A stretch of 64,000 nt of DNA from IMG/VR virus record IMGVR_UViG_3300031555_010338; one strand, given 5' to 3'. A model generated the notes under the pieces. The model ran no database searches and had not been told where the DNA came from. It saw only the letters and a list, made by a program, of their open reading frames with translations. The position numbers and the translations under genes were made by a program. Source of the stretch: a virus (lineage: Duplodnaviria; Caudoviricetes). Of the stretch, positions 30,065 through 43,530 are shown one piece after another; within the stretch, counting starts at the first letter, position 1; every line of letters starts with the position of its first letter.

Positions 30065-30157
30065 GGAGCAGTAAGCCTAACTGGTAAGATAGTCGCCTGC
30101 TAAGCGACGAGTAGCCGCGTAAGCGGTGTGCAGGTTCGAGTCCTGTCTGCTCCGCCA
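30065..30157 (+). tRNA. tRNA-Ser(GCT)
   Basis: GGAGCAG/CTGCTCC acceptor, GTCGC-CTGCTAA-GCGAC, long variable arm, GGTTCGAGTCC, encoded CCA. Confidence 0.9.
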
Positions 30158-30161
30158 TCAA

Positions 30162-30327
30162 GAGCAAGTAGGCAAAGAGAAAGCCTATTCATATCGACGA
30201 GCAATAACTGTAACACCTCCCTTTACTCACCATACATCCCCCTCCCTATCTCCTTTGTTCCCTGCTTCGTCGCATGAATACAAAATAGATTCGTCTATTG
30301 CATAGGAGCGTTGCCTATGCCTTGCTC
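30162..30327 (+). ncRNA. Structured ncRNA candidate with large C/U-rich loop
   Basis: Nested helices GAGCAAG/CTTGCTC, TAGGCAA/TTGCCTA, TATTCAT/ATGAATA, CGACGAGCA/TGCTTCGTCG enclosing an anti-SD-rich loop. Confidence 0.6.
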
Positions 30328-30340
30328 GATAAAAAAATCT

Positions 30341-30427
30341 GCTGGTGTGGTGGAATTGGCAGACACATCGGACTTAAGTTCCGATGCTCGTAAGGGCGTG
30401 TGGGTTCAAGTCCCACCGCCAGCACCA
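30341..30427 (+). tRNA. tRNA-Leu(TAA)
   Basis: GCTGGTG acceptor, TGGAATTGGCAGAC D-arm, TCGGA-CTTAAGT-TCCGA, variable arm, T-arm, CCA. Confidence 0.95.
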
Positions 30428-34647: not shown

Positions 34648-35544
34648 ATGGGCGGCGGAAGTTGGACTTCTCGTGATTGGGATAGCTATTCCAAAAGTAC
34701 GATCAGTGGCAAGACGGCATCTGGTATTTACACCAGTCGTTCCACAAAAGCTGAATTTGATCCGAAGAATGTAACGGTGCGTGAGAGCAGAGATGGCGTA
34801 GACCATCCAGAAAGCAATGCAATTATCGTTGGCTTGGATGTCACCGGCTCCATGAACGACATTCTGGAAGGCGTTGCAAAGAAGCTGAATGTCTTGGTCA
34901 GCGAAATTCTGGATCGTAAACCCGTTACTGATCCTCAGATCATGTTCAATGCGATTGGAGATGCGATGTGCGACAGCTCTCCCTTCCAGGTAACGCAGTT
35001 TGAGTCCGATATTAGAATTGCAGAGCAGCTCACTCAGCTCTATTTTGAGCGAGGCGGCGGCGGAAACAGCTTTGAGAGCTATCCCCTCGCATGGTATTTT
35101 GCTGCACGGCATACCGATATCGACTGTTTCAACAAGCGTGGCAAGAAGGGCTTCTTGTTCACTATGGGAGATGACTGTTTCCCGAAGAAACTGACTAAAC
35201 GAGAGATCAATGACATTTTTGGCGACACTGTTGAGGCAGATATCCCCGTTGAAAATATTTTGACGGAGGTAAATCGCAAGTACGAAGTGTTCCATCTGGT
35301 TCTGGATCGCTATGGTGACAGCAGCCGCATTGGTGAGTGGCGAAACCTAATTGGCGAACGTGCCATCAAAGTAAGCGACTATACCAAAATCCCCGAAATC
35401 ATTGTTTCTATTCTGGAGACTATGGGCGGCAAGGATGTTGACACTGTTGCCGCAAGCTGGGATGGCTCCACTTCTTTGGTGGTCAAAGATGCTCTGAGCG
35501 GCCTCCAGAGTGTGACTGCAAAAAGCGATCTTGTAGAGTTTTAA
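34648..35544 (+). CDS. vWA-domain protein
   Basis: MGGGSW N-terminus, MIDAS DVTGSM, QFESD, GGGGN..ESY, FTMGD. Confidence 0.85.
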
Positions 35545-35564: not shown

Positions 35565-36761
35565 ATGGTAAAGCAGATCAAAGTTGTTATCGGAGCCAAT
35601 TTTGGCGATGAGGGCAAAGGTCTTATGACCGATTATTTCTGCCACGAGCTTTCACAAACTGGTAGCGTTCTGAACATTCGTCATAACGGCGGCGCACAAG
35701 CTGGTCATACCGTGGTATTACCAGACGGCAAGCGTCATGTGTTCAGTCACTTTGGGTCTGGGAGCTTCGTACCCCATGTCGCTACTTATCTTTCTCAGGA
35801 TTTTATTCTCAACCCTATGCTCTTCTGTCGTGAACTGGAGCGTCTGAAAAACAAGTTCGGCCTAATGCCAAGAGTATTCATCAACCCATATTGTAGGCTT
35901 ACAACCCCATACGACATGCTTATCAACCAGATCGCAGAGCGTAGTCGTGGTGATGCACGGCACGGTAGCTGCGGTTTAGGTATCAATGAAACTGTCGTTC
36001 GCAATGAGCGCATTCGGACGGATATCGGTCTGTTTGCATCTAAACCAGCATTGATGAATCATCTGGTAGCAACGCTGGTTTATCTGCGTAAGGAATATGT
36101 TCCAAGCCGTTTGAAGCAGCTTGGCGTAGATAACATTTCTATCGAGGACATGAAGCTAATTGAAAGCGATATCGTCCTTGAAAACTGGATGATGCAACTG
36201 ACAGAAATGCTCAACTATTGCACCATTGCCGGCGATGAAATCCTTGATAATTACGACGGACTTGTGTTCGAGGGAGCGCAGGGGCTTCTTCTGGACAACG
36301 ACTGTAAAGCGTTTGCTCCGCACCTTACCACATCTAAGACGGGATCTTTTAACCCTAAAAATATTCTTGCTCGTATGTCCATGCAGGATCGGGATATTGA
36401 GTTCTGCTATGTGACCCGCTCCTACTTCACACGGCATGGAGCTGGCAAGTTCCCTTCTGAGTGTGAGAAAAGCATTATTCTTCCTGAGGATGTTGTTGAT
36501 AAGACCAATCATTTCAACGAGTTTCAGAGAGAATTCCGCTATGGATACTTTGATGAGTATTTGTTCGAGAATGCCACTGAGAAAGATCTTCTGTATCGGC
36601 ACTGCGATTTCTCAAAGGCCAAATATACCAGAGCAGTTACCCATTTGGACGAAACGGATGGTAAGCTGATCGGCCACGATGGAAAGGAACTCTCCTTCCC
36701 GTCTGGCACACGATACCGCAGCTACGGAGAGACACGAAACGATGTCCATTGTCTGCGCTAA
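35565..36761 (+). CDS. Adenylosuccinate synthetase-like (PurA family) protein
   Basis: GANFGDEGKG, GGAQAGHTV, HGSCGLGI, FEGAQGLLLD, TRHGAG. Confidence 0.88.
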   Translation: MVKQIKVVIGANFGDEGKGLMTDYFCHELSQTGSVLNIRHNGGAQAGHTVVLPDGKRHVFSHFGSGSFVPHVATYLSQDFILNPMLFCRELERLKNKFGLMPRVFINPYCRLTTPYDMLINQIAERSRGDARHGSCGLGINETVVRNERIRTDIGLFASKPALMNHLVATLVYLRKEYVPSRLKQLGVDNISIEDMKLIESDIVLENWMMQLTEMLNYCTIAGDEILDNYDGLVFEGAQGLLLDNDCKAFAPHLTTSKTGSFNPKNILARMSMQDRDIEFCYVTRSYFTRHGAGKFPSECEKSIILPEDVVDKTNHFNEFQREFRYGYFDEYLFENATEKDLLYRHCDFSKAKYTRAVTHLDETDGKLIGHDGKELSFPSGTRYRSYGETRNDVHCLR

Positions 36762-36839: not shown

Positions 36840-37916
36840 ATGATTAAGAAAGTTGACCGCAAAAACCGTTTTGTGTCCATGTTTGACCCCAAGACTGGTT
36901 TCTATGCCAGAAGCGGAGTAATCGATGAAAACGGCAATGATACCGGCGTAGATCCTTTTATGACCGCTTATCCTGAGCTGATCGATGTCGGCGTTATGGG
37001 ACATTGCGTACACGGCAGCAGTGGTCTTTGCATTAAGTCTGGTGTCCAGTGCTATCAGAACGGCCTTAAAACAAAGCATCCCAACATGACGCTTGAAAAC
37101 TTCAAACGTATTGTAGATGAGTGCAAGGGAAAAACCTTCCAGCTTGCGCTTGGTGGTCGTGGCGATGTGGATCAGCATGAAAATTTTGCTGAGATCCTTC
37201 AGTATTGTCGTGAGAACGATATCGTCCCCAACTTCACCAGCTCTGGCCTTGGTTTCACTGACGAAATCGTACAGCTTTGTAAGCAGTATTGTGGTGCGGT
37301 TGCGATTTCCTGGTATCGTCAGTCTCATACGATCCGTGCGATTCAGATGCTTCTTGATGCTGGTGTAAAGACCAACATTCACTATGTTCTTGGAAACAAT
37401 TCCATCGACGAGGCAATCGAGCGTTTGAAGAACAATGATTTCCCAGCCGGTGTTAATGCAGTAATCTTTCTGCTTCATAAGCCCGTTGGTCTTGGTAGTG
37501 AAGAGAATGTGCTACAGAGCGACGATCCCCGTGTTGCGGAGTTTTTCAAGGTAGTGGATGCGCAGAAGTTCAATTTCAAGATTGGTTTTGACTCCTGTTC
37601 TATTCCCGCCGTACTTAACCTTACAAGTAATATCGATCATGACAGTATCGATACCTGCGAGGGTGGCCGTTGGAGCATGTATATTACCAGCGACATGAAG
37701 GCTTTGCCCTGCTATTTCGATAATCAGGAGCTTCGCTGGGCATACGACATCAGCAACGACAGCATTCAGAACGCCTGGAACAGTCCTCAGTTTGAAGACT
37801 TCCGCAATCATTTCCGCACGGCCTGTCCTGGATGTAGCCAGCGGTGTGCTTGCATGGGCGGCTGTCCTATTCGTCCGCAGATCGTTATTTGTAATAGGAA
37901 GGAGAAAACGGTGTAA
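36840..37916 (+). CDS. Radical SAM/SPASM-domain protein with atypical CX7CX6C motif
   Basis: CVHGSSGLCIKSGVQCYQ; ALGGRGD; SPASM CEGG..PC..CPGC..CMGGCP. Confidence 0.85.
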   Translation: MIKKVDRKNRFVSMFDPKTGFYARSGVIDENGNDTGVDPFMTAYPELIDVGVMGHCVHGSSGLCIKSGVQCYQNGLKTKHPNMTLENFKRIVDECKGKTFQLALGGRGDVDQHENFAEILQYCRENDIVPNFTSSGLGFTDEIVQLCKQYCGAVAISWYRQSHTIRAIQMLLDAGVKTNIHYVLGNNSIDEAIERLKNNDFPAGVNAVIFLLHKPVGLGSEENVLQSDDPRVAEFFKVVDAQKFNFKIGFDSCSIPAVLNLTSNIDHDSIDTCEGGRWSMYITSDMKALPCYFDNQELRWAYDISNDSIQNAWNSPQFEDFRNHFRTACPGCSQRCACMGGCPIRPQIVICNRKEKTV

Positions 37917-38185
37917 TGCCTAAATATCCAAAGGGTTATAAAGACGTTGAATTTTTCGCTCACAATGTTAAGCCTGGTAAAAAGCGCAGACGCTTGGCTG
38001 GATCGACAAAAGCAACAAACGACTTCCTTGTGATTATCCATGAGCAATATCCAGATAAAACAATTTCACAGTTACGGGATCTTCTTCTGGATAAAACACA
38101 GTTCATTTATCACCCTGAGGCAGTTGCCGTTCTTGATGCTTACATAAAGGCCGGCGAAGCAGACATTATTCCGTATTGGAAATAA
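37916..38185 (+). CDS. Hypothetical protein
   Basis: TAATG coupling; AAGGAG RBS. Confidence 0.7.
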   Translation: MPKYPKGYKDVEFFAHNVKPGKKRRRLAGSTKATNDFLVIIHEQYPDKTISQLRDLLLDKTQFIYHPEAVAVLDAYIKAGEADIIPYWK

Positions 38186-38394
38186 TGCGAGATATCAAGC
38201 GTATTAGAAAGTTTTGCAATCAGCTTGCAGACTTATGGGAAACACATTGCCCAGATATGAGGTTTGGGCAGTTGGTTCATAATGTAGTCAATAGTGGCGA
38301 GTTGGCAAAAACCGACCCGTTTTATATTGAAGACGAAGAAATGCTTCAGCATTTCAAAAACTACTTTTCAAAACAAATGGAGGTACAGTCATGA
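38185..38394 (+). CDS. Hypothetical phage protein (MRD..RI...W...PDMRFGQL)
   Basis: TAATG coupling; recognisable small phage-protein pattern. Confidence 0.7.
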   Translation: MRDIKRIRKFCNQLADLWETHCPDMRFGQLVHNVVNSGELAKTDPFYIEDEEMLQHFKNYFSKQMEVQS

Positions 38395-38582
38395 AAAAGA
38401 TCATTTCCGTAGACACCACATACACATTCGACACAGCAATCATCTCTTTGCCCGATGGCACTGTTGTCAAGGGCGAAGTTGACTCGTGGACAGACTACGA
38501 AGACGGCGATCAGATTCAAGTCGTTATTGACGGCGTTACATATCTGGTTCACTCTACCAACATTGTTCTGGTTCAGGACTGA
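38391..38582 (+). CDS. Hypothetical protein
   Basis: GGAGG RBS; ATGA overlap. Confidence 0.75.
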   Translation: MKKIISVDTTYTFDTAIISLPDGTVVKGEVDSWTDYEDGDQIQVVIDGVTYLVHSTNIVLVQD

Positions 38583-38591
38583 GGTGGCAGC

Positions 38592-38942
38592 ATGAAGCTG
38601 AGAAATGGATTTGTGACGAATAGCTCTTCCAGTAGCTATCTGTGTGTTGCGAAAATCGATTTTACCGATGAACTTCGCGCATACATGAAGGAAGAGTTTG
38701 GTAAGTATGGCGAACGTCTGTTGAAGGAACATCTGCAAACTGGCGCAAAGATCAAAGAAGACTGCGACGAGATTTGGGACTATTTCGATGATCGTGGCTG
38801 CTTGGATGATCTGGAAGATGATGCTTACTATCTTGGCGCACGGTTTATCGAGTGGACGAACGATGGAGATACAGAGGGCGACGACGCTTTCCTCTATAAC
38901 AATATCCCCGATAAATTCAAGCTGGCAACTTATGGTGAGTAA
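38592..38942 (+). CDS. FVTNSSSSS-motif protein 1
   Basis: MKLRNGFVTNSSSSSYL. Confidence 0.9.
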   Translation: MKLRNGFVTNSSSSSYLCVAKIDFTDELRAYMKEEFGKYGERLLKEHLQTGAKIKEDCDEIWDYFDDRGCLDDLEDDAYYLGARFIEWTNDGDTEGDDAFLYNNIPDKFKLATYGE

Positions 38943-39446
38943 ATGAAAGTCCGAAGCGATTTTGTCACCAATAGTTCATCGAGCAGTTTTGTTCTCGCTT
39001 TCAATAGTAAGGATGATTTCGACGAGTTCAATTTTCGATGTGAGGATTTAGGATATAAGGCGTTTTTCAGACTTATTAAGCGGATGATGAAGCGTAGTGA
39101 ATCCGTAGACAAGAACGCCGCACTTAAAATGCTCCGTAGCTTCTATCGTTTCGAGAAAATCAATGAGAATGAAATGATGGACGCATATGCAAAGGATCGT
39201 GGAAAGCGATATTGGTATGAAGTATCTGACGAGGCAAATAACGATCCTGATTACCAAGCAGAAATCGAGCGCCGTTTAGCAGCTACCGACTATACCGAAC
39301 AGAAACAGCGCATTGAAAATGCAGAAATTGTCGTTAGCGGTACAATCTGGGATAGCGACGGTGGCTTGCTTGAATGGGCAATTCGGAATGGATTCATCAA
39401 AGATGAGTTCTGGAGGTATTGCATTTTATCGTGGAATGTAGGGTGA
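38943..39446 (+). CDS. FVTNSSSSS-motif protein 2
   Basis: MKVRSDFVTNSSSSSFV. Confidence 0.9.
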   Translation: MKVRSDFVTNSSSSSFVLAFNSKDDFDEFNFRCEDLGYKAFFRLIKRMMKRSESVDKNAALKMLRSFYRFEKINENEMMDAYAKDRGKRYWYEVSDEANNDPDYQAEIERRLAATDYTEQKQRIENAEIVVSGTIWDSDGGLLEWAIRNGFIKDEFWRYCILSWNVG

Positions 39447-39450
39447 GACA

Positions 39451-39870
39451 ATGAAGAAACGAACAGATTTTGTAACTAACAGCTCGTCAAGTAGCTTTAT
39501 CTGTTGCTTTGCTCGAATTGCAGATCAGCAGAAAGCGCAGGCCACGCTTGACAAGCATGAAAAGAAGATCGAGGTTTATACCGCAGAGGAAGTGCTTGAA
39601 GAACTGAAGCGAAACTCTTCCTGGTCTAAGTGGCTTGAATACGATTGGACTGGTATCGATGTTACTCCAAGCAAGGAGTATATCGAGCAGCACATGGATG
39701 ATCGGTTTATCGTTATCACTGACAGCGAAGATCTTTACGAGGATGAGGACGGAGATATCGACTACGATGTTGACTACTCCGATTTTGACACCGATGCGAT
39801 TGACGATATCACCGAAGAGAATGGCTTTGCTGATATCGATTGTCAGTACGGAGCCGGTAGAAATGGTTGA
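39451..39870 (+). CDS. FVTNSSSSS-motif protein 3
   Basis: MKKRTDFVTNSSSSSFI. Confidence 0.9.
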   Translation: MKKRTDFVTNSSSSSFICCFARIADQQKAQATLDKHEKKIEVYTAEEVLEELKRNSSWSKWLEYDWTGIDVTPSKEYIEQHMDDRFIVITDSEDLYEDEDGDIDYDVDYSDFDTDAIDDITEENGFADIDCQYGAGRNG

Positions 39871-39882
39871 TAGGAGATTCGC

Positions 39883-40182
39883 ATGAAGATTAGAAAAGAC
39901 TTCGTAACCAACAGCTCTTCTTCAAGCTTTCTGATTACCAACAAATCCGATAAGGAAATGGATGCAAGAGATGTCATACTTTCGCTTCTTGCCAGAATTT
40001 TGGAGGATGCCGAAGGAAGATTTACCTTGGAGCCTGGTCAGTCCATTCATTATGAATGCGGAGACGGAGATGACGATGGTGCTTTTGAGAACTTCATCCA
40101 TAGCGGATTTAGCGGGTGGGGTATCACTGAAAGATACGGCAATGGTGATGCGGAAGTGACATTTTTGGAAAGTCATCATTAA
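39883..40182 (+). CDS. FVTNSSSSS-motif protein 4
   Basis: MKIRKDFVTNSSSSSFL; ends ESHH. Confidence 0.9.
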   Translation: MKIRKDFVTNSSSSSFLITNKSDKEMDARDVILSLLARILEDAEGRFTLEPGQSIHYECGDGDDDGAFENFIHSGFSGWGITERYGNGDAEVTFLESHH

Positions 40183-40193
40183 GGAGGATGCCA

Positions 40194-40709
40194 ATGAAAA
40201 TCAGACATGATTTTGTGACGAACAGTAGTTCAAGCAGTTTTATTCTGGCCTTCGAGAGCAAAGAAGACGGGTATTCTAAGATCGCAGCCATGACAAAAGA
40301 ATATGGTAGCAATTATGTGTGCCAGCTTTTGAAGGATTTCGAGGAAGAGCAGCCTATCCCTCGTGAAGAACTCTATGAGCGTGTGAAGAACGATCTCGAA
40401 TCGCTTGCTTATTACAAGCTTTGTTATGGCGATGGTGGATGGTGGAGTTCCGAAAAGGATACATTTAGGAGCCGTTGGGAGAAGGCGCATCCTGGCGCTG
40501 GTTATTCTGACTTCTATCGTTCAGAAGAGTTTATCACAGAAAAGGAGCGCCTGGTAAAGCAGTATTTTGATGAGTTGCTTGCCAAGATTGGTGATCGCAG
40601 CCATATCGTAGAGATTGAATATGAAGACCACTCCACTGTAGGTAGTGAGCTTGAACACAATATTCTTCCCGACTGCGATTTCACTATTCAGCGGTTTAGC
40701 CACCATTAA
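40194..40709 (+). CDS. FVTNSSSSS-motif protein 5
   Basis: MKIRHDFVTNSSSSSFI; ends FSHH. Confidence 0.9.
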   Translation: MKIRHDFVTNSSSSSFILAFESKEDGYSKIAAMTKEYGSNYVCQLLKDFEEEQPIPREELYERVKNDLESLAYYKLCYGDGGWWSSEKDTFRSRWEKAHPGAGYSDFYRSEEFITEKERLVKQYFDELLAKIGDRSHIVEIEYEDHSTVGSELEHNILPDCDFTIQRFSHH

Positions 40710-40721
40710 AGGAGGTAGCCA

Positions 40722-41276
40722 ATGAAGTTCAGAAAAGATTTTGTGACCAATTCCAGTAGCTCAAGCTATGTTTGTGAGATCTGCGGAGAAACAGCAAGCG
40801 GCTGGGATATCAGTCTTAGTGAAGCAGAGATGGTCGAGTGTGAAAACGGCCATGTGATCTGCGAAAGTGAAATGCTTCCGATTTCAAGAGAAGATCTGAT
40901 TGCGATGATGGTAAAGGATTTTGACCATATCGCAGAAGAGTTTGATGACAAGTCAGATGACGAAATTCTTAGTAGTTATCTGAGCGAAGATGATGTGCGG
41001 TATGGCGTTCCCGAATGCTTCTGCCCTATTTGCCAGTTTATCGAATATTCTCAGGGCGACCTTGCCAAGTATCTGGAAAAGAAATATAAAGTAAGCCGTG
41101 CTGAGGTGTTTGAGAAGGTCAAGCAGCTCAACAAGCGTCGCAAGAAGCTGTATGACAGCGAGTATGTGACCGAAGTATGCAGCCGCTTCAATCTGAACCC
41201 CACTGAGATTGTTGCCGGTCTGAAAGCAGAGTTTGGCAGTTATCGAAGATTCAAAAACTACATTATGATGCGGTGA
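40722..41276 (+). CDS. FVTNSSSSS-motif protein 6 (Cys-rich)
   Basis: MKFRKDFVTNSSSSSYVCEIC...CENGH.IC...CPIC. Confidence 0.9.
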   Translation: MKFRKDFVTNSSSSSYVCEICGETASGWDISLSEAEMVECENGHVICESEMLPISREDLIAMMVKDFDHIAEEFDDKSDDEILSSYLSEDDVRYGVPECFCPICQFIEYSQGDLAKYLEKKYKVSRAEVFEKVKQLNKRRKKLYDSEYVTEVCSRFNLNPTEIVAGLKAEFGSYRRFKNYIMMR

Positions 41277-41281
41277 TCTGA

Positions 41282-41638
41282 ATGAAAGTAAGAAGTGATT
41301 TTGTAACGAATTCAAGCAGTAGCGCCTTTATCTGTCTGCGTATTGGCCGTGACTTGGAAGAAGTATTCTTTCTTGCAAATGACATGACCAGTGAGCAGAT
41401 TCTTGATAAGGCATATGACGAGGGCTTGGATGAAGTAGAGCTGAAGGGCAAGAATATGGTTGCTGCCGTTGGCGAGTGTAGCGTTGAGTATGTCGGATGG
41501 ACACTTGATGAAAGCGATCTTACCGAAAAGAATCTGGTTCAGCTCAAAGAGGAAATGGCAAAGACCATTAGAGAAACCTACGGTATTCAGCTCGAAGATA
41601 AGGATATCCAGTTTGACTATGGAGAGATTTCACGATGA
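41282..41638 (+). CDS. FVTNSSSS-motif protein 7
   Basis: MKVRSDFVTNSSSSAFI. Confidence 0.9.
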   Translation: MKVRSDFVTNSSSSAFICLRIGRDLEEVFFLANDMTSEQILDKAYDEGLDEVELKGKNMVAAVGECSVEYVGWTLDESDLTEKNLVQLKEEMAKTIRETYGIQLEDKDIQFDYGEISR

Positions 41639-42069
41639 AGATCAGACAGGACTTTGTAACGAATAGTAGTAGTTCCAGCTATATTATTGCGTATCAGCAG
41701 ATTCCCGAAATCGACGATGATACACTGGCAAAGTATCCGATGCTTACTTGTTTTAACAAGCTTGTGGAGACTGTAATGTTTGCTAAGAGCGACTATAACG
41801 ATACTACTGCTGGCAAAAAGATTGCAACCAAAGAAGAGCTTGACGCTCATTTCAAAGATTACTACGGCTGGCGCAAAGAACAGACCTTGGAGGAAATTTT
41901 TGAAGATGAAGAGTACGCCAAGGATCAGTACGATAGGTGTGCTACGGCTCTTGACCGTGGTTGCAACATCTTGATTAAGCATGTTGACTACAGCGATGAC
42001 ACAATCGCTAATATGCTTAAAATGCTTGGGCAGGGCGACACTGGAATCGAAATTATTGACAGCGATTAA
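41635..42069 (+). CDS. FVTNSSSSS-motif protein 8
   Basis: MKIRQDFVTNSSSSSYI. Confidence 0.9.
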   Translation: MKIRQDFVTNSSSSSYIIAYQQIPEIDDDTLAKYPMLTCFNKLVETVMFAKSDYNDTTAGKKIATKEELDAHFKDYYGWRKEQTLEEIFEDEEYAKDQYDRCATALDRGCNILIKHVDYSDDTIANMLKMLGQGDTGIEIIDSD

Positions 42070-42123: not shown

Positions 42124-43530
42124 GTGAAGACATTGTATTCTGCATTTGTTACCAGAATTAAAAACCTGAGAAAACATACGAATGCAGATCGTCTGATGTG
42201 TGGCGAGTGTTTTGGCAATACGGTTATCGTTGGCCTGGACACTCAGCCAGACGAGCTTGGTGTTTACTTCCCCGTAGACGGCAAGCTTGGTTTGGAGTTT
42301 GCGCAGAAGAATGATCTGCTCCGCCGCAAGGATGAAAATGGCAAACCTGCTGGCGGTTATCTCGATCCTGAGAAGAGAAACATTAAGGCTCTGAAGCTCC
42401 GTGGAGAAAAGAGCGACGGCCTGTTTATGCCTCTTGTTTGTCTGGCAGATTACACCGATATTGCCAGTTTGAAAGAGGGTGACACCATTACAGTGTTGAA
42501 TGGTGTAACGATTTGTGAGAAATATATCCCCCGCGCAAGTAGTAGGGGGGGGTGTCATTTTGATGGTAATCGCACTCGCAAGCGCAAAGATCCTGTGTCT
42601 CCCCTGTTCATGGAACATGCAGACACGGAACAGCTTGCCTACAATCTTACATCCTTCCGTGCTGGCGACCAAATCGAGGTCACTTTGAAGATGCACGGCA
42701 CTTCTCAGAGAACCGGCTATCTTCCCGTTCTGAGTGGATATAAGCGCACCATTATGGATAAGCTGCGCAAGCGTTCTGGCACACCGATTTATGATTGGGG
42801 CTATGTCTCCGGTACTCGTCGTGTAGTTCTGGACGATTATGAAGGCGGCTACTATGGGAGCAACGCCTTCCGTGAGCAGCACAGCAAGATCTTTGAAGGC
42901 AAACTTCATAAGGGCGAGACGGTATATTATGAGGTTGTTGGTTTTACTCAGGACGGTACGCCTATCATGGCTTCTTGTGATAACAAGAAAGTAGGCGATA
43001 AGGAATTTACTAAACAATACGGAGATGTTACGACATTCTCTTATGGCTGCAAGCCTGGACATTTGGGCGGACTTATCAAAGATAAGGAAATTGTGGATAA
43101 CGAAGCTGTTGTGTATCCGCAGTCTGACATCTATGTGTACCGTATGACCATGACCAATGAGGACGGCGATGTAGTTGAGTACACGCCCGATTTTATGCGT
43201 TACCGTTGTGAGCAGATGGGCGTTAAGTGTGTTCCCGTATTTTACAAGGGCTACATTCCCGAATACTTCATCCTGCCCGATGATGTTGGAAGTCCCGCCG
43301 CAATCGATGCTGGTGCATATGTAAAGAAGCTGGCTGAGGATTTCTACGACGGCGCTGATCCTGTTGGTAAATCCCATATCCGTGAGGGTGTTGTAGTTCG
43401 GATCATCAACCGTCCTAAGTTCACCGCTTACAAGCATAAGAACTTTGCGTTTAAGGTGCTGGAGGGCATTATCAAGGATGTTGCTACCGCACCTGACATG
43501 GAAGAGGCTCAGGAACAGGAGGCTGCATAA
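42124..43530 (+). CDS. ATP-dependent RNA ligase (Rnl2/DRB0094-like) with N-terminal OB-like domain
   Basis: H.NADRL and KLRGEKSDG N-domain; motif I KMHGTS, III YYEVVG, IV EGVVV, V YKHKN. True start may be TTG 42133. Confidence 0.85.
   Translation: MKTLYSAFVTRIKNLRKHTNADRLMCGECFGNTVIVGLDTQPDELGVYFPVDGKLGLEFAQKNDLLRRKDENGKPAGGYLDPEKRNIKALKLRGEKSDGLFMPLVCLADYTDIASLKEGDTITVLNGVTICEKYIPRASSRGGCHFDGNRTRKRKDPVSPLFMEHADTEQLAYNLTSFRAGDQIEVTLKMHGTSQRTGYLPVLSGYKRTIMDKLRKRSGTPIYDWGYVSGTRRVVLDDYEGGYYGSNAFREQHSKIFEGKLHKGETVYYEVVGFTQDGTPIMASCDNKKVGDKEFTKQYGDVTTFSYGCKPGHLGGLIKDKEIVDNEAVVYPQSDIYVYRMTMTNEDGDVVEYTPDFMRYRCEQMGVKCVPVFYKGYIPEYFILPDDVGSPAAIDAGAYVKKLAEDFYDGADPVGKSHIREGVVVRIINRPKFTAYKHKNFAFKVLEGIIKDVATAPDMEEAQEQEAA

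Follow-up and report, generated by a model that had tools for sequence, protein, structure and literature searches.

A SPASM-domain radical SAM-like enzyme and a portable N-terminal tag form a candidate protein-modification cassette in phages and bacteria

The window analysed here, a stretch of 64,000 nucleotides from a tailed virus (IMG/VR record IMGVR_UViG_3300031555_010338), carries a gene for a SPASM-domain enzyme resembling radical S-adenosylmethionine (SAM) enzymes and, downstream of it, a tandem array of eight open reading frames (ORFs) whose products begin with the same short N-terminal tag. Enzyme and tag recur as a pair in phages, conjugative elements and bacteria alike. This points to a system not described before, built on one enzyme that binds many different proteins and probably modifies them chemically. 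We consider it likely that the locus is a one-enzyme, many-client protein-modification cassette, the tag being recognised on otherwise unrelated folded proteins. The window lies in a provirus record of 143,788 bp that is complete according to CheckV, and its source is a gut-bacterial prophage of ~144 kb.

The N-terminal tag and its linkage to the enzyme

The products of all eight ORFs start with the consensus MKxRxDFVTNSSSS[S/A][F/Y], a tag of 16 residues in which M1, K2, R4, F7, V8, T9, N10 and S11-S14 are invariant in the eight-protein alignment; beyond the tag the columns show a low mean identity. Scanning the window with a degenerate DNA pattern for FVTNSSSS gave eight matches, all of them at the starts of array ORFs (0.00 expected from 100 shuffles), and a tag-profile search of the whole 143.8-kb virus record returned exactly these eight. 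The Ser codons vary from copy to copy, AGC/AGT being mixed with TCT/TCC/TCA/TCG, so the tag has been kept by selection at the protein level and not by recent duplication or conversion of the DNA. The array spans 38592-42069, with all ORFs on the + strand and inter-ORF gaps of -4 to 12 nt. The components of the cassette, with coordinates in the window, are:

36840-37916, + strand: SPASM-domain radical SAM-like enzyme gene, 358 amino acids (aa), Pfam SPASM
37916-38185, + strand: small intervening ORF s1, 89 aa, found only in five closely related loci and lying outside the core system
38176-38394, + strand: small intervening ORF s2, 72 aa, clade-specific companion
38391-38582, + strand: small intervening ORF s3, 63 aa, found in four close loci only and lying outside the core system
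38592-38942, + strand: tagged client p1, 116 aa, starting MKLRNGFVTNSSSSSY..., isoelectric point (pI) 4.4
38943-39446, + strand: tagged client p2, 167 aa, pI 5.1, body in a group of its own in the comparison of 202 tagged proteins
39451-39870, + strand: tagged client p3, 139 aa, pI 4.1, C-terminal half very acidic
39883-40182, + strand: tagged client p4, 99 aa, C-terminal end ESHH
40194-40709, + strand: tagged client p5, 171 aa, phrog_7397, with conserved EYxDH, LEH and C-terminal SHH
40722-41276, + strand: tagged client p6, 184 aa, 8 Cys, zinc-ribbon-like hairpins and a helical domain, conserved NKRRKKLY
41282-41638, + strand: tagged client p7, 118 aa, tag end SSSSA
41635-42069, + strand: tagged client p8, 144 aa, orthologues adjoining the enzyme in loci L001-L004

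ORF calls, pattern scan and alignment thus bear out the original prediction of eight tandem ORFs of 99-184 aa with a common N-terminal motif, situated downstream of a co-oriented SPASM gene (36840-37916, + strand) from which three small ORFs separate them. The mixed AGY/TCN codons agree with its claim that the motif is conserved as protein and is not a DNA repeat, and its description of the bodies was likewise accurate: all eight clients are acidic (pI 4.1-5.1), two end in SHH (p4 and p5) and one is Cys-rich (p6). Two details needed correction. The span had been given from 36840, which is the start of the enzyme gene, the array itself starting at 38592; and the statement that the proteins share almost nothing past the tag, true of bodies that are otherwise unrelated, was slightly overstated, since p4 and p5 share the C-terminal SHH and p5 has His, Asp and Glu residues conserved throughout its family.

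The diversity of the bodies extends well beyond the window. Among 202 distinct tagged proteins, at least 29 groups of bodies have no BLAST similarity to one another, and the tag is near-invariant. A 36-column profile of the tag matched 21,870 of 1.84 billion representative clusters at E≤0.001; among the matches listed, nearly all were small proteins with the tag at residue 1, and most were viral. Large tagged proteins also exist (P0241, P0242; L178:847-3216, - strand), namely an 859-aa BspA-type leucine-rich repeat (LRR) protein and a 789-aa protein without a Pfam domain, LRR_5 being the only Pfam match among them. A search for longer tagged proteins yielded two LRR proteins and one radical SAM-p6 fusion of 378 aa, in which a different, canonical radical SAM fragment is joined to a p6-type body and which may be a chimera of assembly or recombination.

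Linkage of the tag to the enzyme was followed in both directions. Among 46 IMG/VR loci selected by an enzyme 52-87% identical to that of the window, all 43 with enough downstream DNA carried one to seven tagged ORFs on the same strand (43/43), and the tag stood always at the start of an ORF and nowhere else in ~20 kb. In several phage loci the enzyme gene ends within the first tagged ORF. Conversely, 39 loci were selected by the tag in bacterial genome assemblies, the hosts including Lachnospiraceae, Selenomonadaceae, Gastranaerophilales, Synergistaceae, Desulfovibrionaceae, Desulfobacterales and a Kaiserbacteria metagenome-assembled genome (MAG). The enzyme gene was adjacent and on the same strand in 35 of the 39; of the exceptions, one is cut off by a contig edge and another comes from a MAG in which a different contig carries enzyme and tag together. 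The commonest bacterial form is a two-gene module, with a tagged protein of ~124 aa encoded directly upstream of the enzyme; its cultured carriers include Dorea sp. 5-2, Butyrivibrio sp. XPD2006 and Lachnospiraceae NK4A144. A prophage of Clostridiales bacterium CCNA10 (L073) has an enzyme 86% identical to that of the window and five tagged ORFs. When the ORFs of the 39 loci were clustered, only the enzyme and the tagged protein proved to be conserved. A regulator with an XRE-type helix-turn-helix occurred in eight of these loci, and no conserved protease or transporter was found across them.

An unbiased sample was provided by 301 whole genomes of the family of Dorea sp. 5-2. The enzyme was found in eight of them, once as a fragment with a stop, and the tag in six at E≤1e-6; a seventh tag match (3.5e-6) starts a 789-aa ORF directly downstream of the enzyme gene. 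All seven intact enzymes lie beside a tagged ORF, every tag match is within ~2 kb of the enzyme, and no genome of the 301 has the tag and lacks the enzyme. The co-occurrence of motif and enzyme clade, which had been suggested as a check, therefore holds both ways (43/43, 35/39 and the 301-genome sample).

The enzyme and its predicted complex with the tag

SPASM (PF13186) is the only Pfam match of the window enzyme (32.5 bits, cutoff 21.5); the corresponding NCBIfam model TIGR04085 scored 21.4 bits, under its cutoff of 27. The Cys set of the SPASM region (C253, C273, C291, C329-X2-C332-X5-C338-X3-C342 and C351) is invariant in 52 sequences. The NCBIfam models of radical SAM maturases gave local matches at residues 64-158 only, with E values of 5e-8 to 6e-6 and scores far below the cutoffs. 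The cluster motif offers three Cys for putative cluster binding, C56-X7-C64-X6-C71-Y72 (CX7CX6C), and takes the form CxHGxxGLCxxxG[IV][EQ]C-Y throughout the clade.

The affiliation of the enzyme becomes clearer from a homologue on the Agrobacterium tumefaciens Ach5 plasmid pAt, which is 35% identical to it over 350 columns (E 3e-75). The pAt protein passes PF04055 (Radical_SAM) with 52.4 bits (cutoff 29.5) as well as Pfam SPASM and has the canonical CDKGCVFCY; a tagged protein of 131 aa, starting MKLKMDFVSNSSSTSF, is encoded immediately before it. When the two enzymes are aligned, C64 of the window enzyme falls on the first canonical Cys and C71-Y72 on the third, G68 takes the place of the middle one, and C56 belongs to an insertion of eight residues, which identifies the window enzyme as a diverged radical SAM enzyme with a remodelled cluster loop. 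Judged by its homology to bona fide members, it qualifies as a member of the radical SAM superfamily, and the CX7CX6C motif is of interest for radical SAM enzymology. Other profile searches were less informative. An enzyme hidden Markov model (HMM) run against PDB sequences returned spurious pentatricopeptide-repeat matches only, and the PADLOC-DB profiles gave marginal matches only (for the enzyme, pVip at E 0.008; for the clients, no match of significance). No recognition element of the type found in maturases of peptides made by the ribosome and modified after translation (RiPPs) was detected in the enzyme with Pfam and NCBIfam profiles. A third variant of the cluster motif, CVCAHKCKVDCY, which is not CX7CX6C, was observed in a Gastranaerophilales MAG contig, where the enzyme gene is followed by ten tagged ORFs (L052:4143-10450).

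A second variant of the tag, GFVSNSSSSSF, is common, and 74 viral loci were selected by it. Their arrays hold up to 13 copies, and 45 of the 74 have within 8 kb an enzyme homologue that is only 26-34% identical to the window or Agrobacterium enzymes and, where the motif falls inside the aligned segment, has the canonical CX3CX2C-Y. The DFVTN tags pair with CX7CX6C enzymes, and the GFVSN and DFVSN tags with enzymes only ~30-35% identical, most of which have the canonical CX3CX2C-Y. Within one locus the tags are of one variant or nearly so, some arrays being mixed through conservative changes of the GFISN/GYVSN type. One tag variant per locus together with differing enzyme clades indicates that tag and enzyme change together at the level of clades.

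Two clients were modelled with AlphaFold2. The model of p6 has a predicted local distance difference test score (pLDDT) of 91, with residues 1-3 and 7-11 below 50, and that of p5 a pLDDT of 90, with residues 1-10 below 50; both are confident from about residue 12, the first beta-strand running from S13. The low scores at the first residues suggest that the tag is an exposed N-terminal tail, its end merging into strand 1, in two unrelated folds.

The complex was predicted from an enzyme alignment and an alignment of tag residues 1-36, together with SAM and three 4Fe-4S clusters. It scored 0.84, the best of three controls reaching 0.02; the mark used for such scores was reached by 58 of 80 solved complexes and by 2 of 110 mismatched pairs, counts that hold roughly here because supplied alignments and accompanying ligands lie outside the calibration. 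The runs share at least 78% of contacts, and the pLDDT of the partner is at least 65. The best run has residues 2-7 of the tag paired with the enzyme segment 19-26 (KTGFYARSG). Residues F7, V8 and T9 contact the barrel strands 101-105 (QLALGG, the region of the SAM-binding glycine motif), 129-133, 152-155 and 177-181, and later tag residues contact enzyme residues 247-253, 264-281 and 291-293 in the SPASM region. Conservation in the family is highest in the contacting segments 19-26, 101-105, 129-133, 152-155 and 177-181, and at least KTGF[YF]AR and QxALGG are kept in the Agrobacterium sister. The model supports binding of the tag, which would be threaded into the enzyme barrel, and on this prediction the binding site would be the active site. 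In the predicted complex the enzyme N-terminus forms the sheet that the tag joins. We also observed that this N-terminus (residues 1-26, window 36840-36920), which reads MIKKVDRKNRFVSMF... and in bacterial homologues MKIRKEKNFISL..., resembles the tag start MKIRxDFVTN; it may be a built-in pseudo-substrate or a recognition hairpin.

Prediction of the enzyme-motif complex had been named as a further check, and its score relative to the controls favours binding. Co-occurrence, clade-level co-variation, the unpacked tail and the predicted complex jointly support the proposal that the motif is the substrate or recognition element of the radical SAM/SPASM enzyme on a diversified set of proteins. 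Its designation as a phage modification system fits in so far as the system is present in phages; it is not specific to them, as the bacterial two-gene module and the conjugative-element-like Butyrivibrio locus L068 demonstrate.

Interpretation, rival explanations and known systems

In the mechanism that we favour, the enzyme would recognise the tag MKxRxDFVTNSSSSS[F/Y] as the free tail of otherwise unrelated folded clients. Tag residues 2-7 would add a beta-strand to the N-terminal KTGFYARSG hairpin of the enzyme, so that F7-T9 and the Ser run would come to lie in the barrel, with the SAM-binding strands on one side and the SPASM (auxiliary cluster) region on the other. A 5'-deoxyadenosyl radical would then abstract hydrogen from a residue within T9-S15. 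Ser or Thr could thereby be oxidised (formylglycine type), a cross-link (C-O or C-C) formed, a residue epimerised or the backbone cleaved; thioether (sactionine-type) chemistry is unlikely because the tag has no Cys. The eight acidic clients are most likely diversified proteins of phage-host conflict whose activity would depend on the mark left by the enzyme.

The conflict role is suggested by genomic surroundings. In the related prophage locus L004 (10616-13445) the array is followed by isochorismatase, phosphoribosyl pyrophosphate (PRPP)-synthetase-like and NAMPT genes, which by analogy resemble phage pathways of NAD+ reconstitution. In L068 the cassette is situated among genes for restriction-modification, a helicase and a type IV secretion system (T4SS) coupling protein, and on pAt it follows a SMEK-domain protein and faces a weak match to nSTAND nucleoside triphosphatases. 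Such neighbourhoods, the fast diversification of the bodies and a copy number of 1-13 fit conflict proteins. A vWA-like protein beginning with a DRSGSM motif was also seen near the cassette in L002 (6816-7472).

Several points weigh against the favoured reading. Three tag-selected loci with full flanks (L054, L057 and L079) have no enzyme nearby, and in the GFVSN clade 29 of the 74 loci lack one within 8 kb. The window enzyme does not reach the curated threshold of PF04055 and lacks the canonical CX3CX2C, so that its activity is argued from homology to the canonical sister. Besides the limits of calibration given above, solved peptide complexes of SPASM enzymes may contribute to the complex score by likeness, and a tag bound in the barrel as modelled could equally be a plug or a regulator. 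Catalysis on the tag, its chemistry and the biological role are inferred, and the role in conflict is read from neighbouring genes: the RNA ligase beside the window array, NAMPT and the PRPP-synthetase-like gene in L004, and restriction-modification with the T4SS coupling protein in L068.

Much of the same evidence could be accommodated if the tag were a docking handle and not a substrate, the tagged proteins being interchangeable adaptor or regulatory subunits (F-box-like) that steer the enzyme to a host protein, a nucleic acid or a small molecule. Stable docking would fit the co-occurrence and the complex prediction equally well, diversified bodies such as the 859-aa LRR and 789-aa proteins look like modules of target recognition, and conserved machinery for cleavage or export is lacking. 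We nevertheless regard this as unlikely, since the modelled tag lies inside the barrel against the SAM-binding strands, the place of substrates, and would block any other, and since five consecutive invariant small Ser residues are more typical of a reaction site. The probability falls further for a tag that acts autonomously, as a self-processing site (pyruvoyl or N-terminal nucleophile type), an assembly strand (both named as alternatives with the original prediction) or a targeting signal such as one for capsid packaging, the radical SAM enzyme having no more than a pathway in common with it. That the two are strictly adjacent in the whole-genome sample would then go unexplained, the tag occurs in capsid-free contexts (conjugative-element-like L068 and the Agrobacterium plasmid pAt), enzyme and tag co-vary, and their complex passes the controls; in favour of autonomy one can cite the fixed distance from Met1, the exposure of the tag, the minority of tagged ORFs without a nearby enzyme and the precedent of the T4 internal proteins for a short conserved N-terminal targeting peptide.

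Least probable of all, to our mind highly improbable, is a classical RiPP cluster, with the N-terminus as leader and the variable parts as the source of small bioactive peptides, released by cleavage and exported. Several precursors with a conserved N-terminus and a variable remainder beside a radical SAM/SPASM maturase are indeed the RiPP pattern, and the enzyme has weak HMM matches to RiPP maturases. The bodies, however, are of 80-170 residues (up to ~790), and the two that were modelled fold at pLDDT ~90; the 39 bacterial loci have no conserved protease or transporter, the enzyme has no detected RiPP recognition element, and it is the invariant and not the variable part that enters the modelled active site.

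The one-enzyme, many-client reading can also be set against known systems. Radical SAM/SPASM enzymes are known to mature peptides (RiPPs) and one protein family, the sulfatases. The enzyme described here resembles the sulfatase maturases anSME and AtsB, which convert Ser or Cys into formylglycine, in having a radical SAM core with a SPASM domain and, putatively, two fully Cys-ligated auxiliary clusters, and in its probable targets, which are full-length proteins and not exported peptides, with Ser in a short linear motif near the N-terminus. It differs in that the anaerobic sulfatase maturase model TIGR03942 scores 12.2 bits versus a cutoff of 349, the tag lacks C/S-x-P/A-x-R, and the cluster motif is CX7CX6C and not CX3CX2C. 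Moreover, its clients are many unrelated proteins on mobile elements, whereas anSME serves one enzyme family. With RiPP maturases of the SPASM or twitch type (SuiB/StrB, CteB, AlbA, MftC, PqqE, TqqB) it shares the arrangement of one maturase with several co-encoded substrates and a common recognition sequence, as well as the expected binding of the peptide by beta-strand addition and its threading through the barrel. Unlike in these, the recognition element is undetectable, and in the prediction a short hairpin at the enzyme's N-terminus appears to stand in for it; the presumed substrates are folded proteins, protease and exporter are missing, and the conserved segment is apparently the reaction site rather than a leader.

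T4 internal proteins are small, hypervariable and tandem-encoded, carry a short conserved N-terminal peptide for capsid targeting and include some anti-restriction factors. They are not known to have an enzyme partner, in contrast to the present tag, which is also found at capsid-free loci of plasmids and conjugative elements. The FxSxx-COOH/FxsB pair of bacterial conflict operons (Haft and Basu, 2011, as related by Kaur et al., 2020; PMC7159879) is similar in that a radical SAM/SPASM enzyme was matched bioinformatically with a protein bearing a short conserved Ser-containing terminal motif in conflict neighbourhoods. Its motif stands at the C-terminus, behind a variable precursor that a peptidase processes; the present tag is strictly N-terminal (residues 1-16), 16 residues long and contains a Ser run.

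The tag has no description in Pfam, NCBIfam or PADLOC, and full-text literature searches for the motif and for phage radical SAM/SPASM systems returned no description of either the tag or the system. One enzyme apparently has many unrelated folded clients, which it reaches through an N-terminal tag that is short and portable. Should modification be confirmed, it would account for a large number of phage 'hypothetical proteins', define a new radical modification of proteins with a minimal recognition tag, possibly a handle for protein engineering, and expose a regulated arsenal of phage-host conflict. A bolder version, tentative and on balance doubtful, is that of a portable 'radical tagging' system of mobile elements and bacterial immune operons, in which one radical SAM enzyme would put an undescribed modification on the Ser/Thr run of whatever protein bears the tag and so switch on a fast-diversifying set of conflict proteins. 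In that case the run could be turned into a reactive warhead (aldehyde or dehydro) or be stapled intramolecularly through an ether or C-C bond, and if this were true, it would be a new class of whole-protein post-translational modification used by phages and hosts alike.

Individual clients, relatives and neighbouring genes

The nearest type to p1 is the ~124-aa tagged protein present in single copy in bacteria, and p2 has close orthologues in P0002-P0004. The p5 ORF could start at 40188 (173 aa) or at 40194 (171 aa, MKIRHDF...); the Met at 40194 is most likely, because the tag is then at the same offset as in the other clients. From this start p5 matches phrog_7397, a phage family to which function is not assigned, over its full length (E 1.4e-6, profile positions 1-167 of 170). 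The matches of p1, p7 and p8 to the same family cover the first ~35 positions only, which are the tag. The conserved EYxDH, LEH and C-terminal SHH of the p5 family may, judging from the residues involved, constitute a metal site, and the last strand of p5 probably lies beside the strand that follows the tag. The most widely conserved client is p6, with more than 100 orthologues at 41-82% identity. Foldseek searches of PDB with the p5 and p6 models gave nothing above background. For p5, a wide fold search with VIA-align found helical hairpins only (best Z 5.5, not above background) and BFVD contained no fold match; the structural neighbours of p6 in the Atlas were of its own viral family only. 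His or Tyr is C-terminal in 63% of tagged proteins versus 27% of control ORFs, an enrichment not taken as a universal feature because few families drive it.

When the region and p5 were searched against the INPHARED phages at nucleotide and protein level, nothing was found. The enzyme protein search found a 26%-identical radical SAM/SPASM gene in 167 cultured T4-like phages of Klebsiella, Enterobacter, Cronobacter, Citrobacter and Escherichia. These genes were rejected as members of the system, as in Klebsiella phage KP15 (L098, NC_014036.1 90116-91318) there is no tagged ORF within 6 kb of the gene; they may represent a separate uncharacterised family of phage radical SAM enzymes.

Among the three small ORFs between enzyme and array only s2 is conserved, and among close relatives only: it was found in 29 loci with an enzyme ~75% or more identical and is absent from the minimal two-gene modules. 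A family-profile search with s1 was without match. In a scan of the cassette for promoters and terminators, promoter-like sites were fewer than the shuffle mean.

The cassette of the window is flanked by a PurA/PurZ-like gene and an RNA-ligase gene. The former (35565-36761) is directly upstream of the enzyme and matches phrog_1211 (E 4e-60), annotated as the PurZ-type adenylosuccinate synthetase of 2-aminoadenine (Z-base) phages; the ORF at 34648-35544 had no Pfam match at E≤0.001. Directly downstream of the array, the ORF at 42124-43530 has weak matches to RNA ligase and to an oligonucleotide-binding (OB) fold (PHA02142), which are consistent with a putative RNA-repair module beside the cassette. 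The phage also encodes tRNA-Ser(GCT) and tRNA-Leu(TAA) at window positions 30065-30427, and about half of the tag Ser codons in the array are AGY, the type read by the former.

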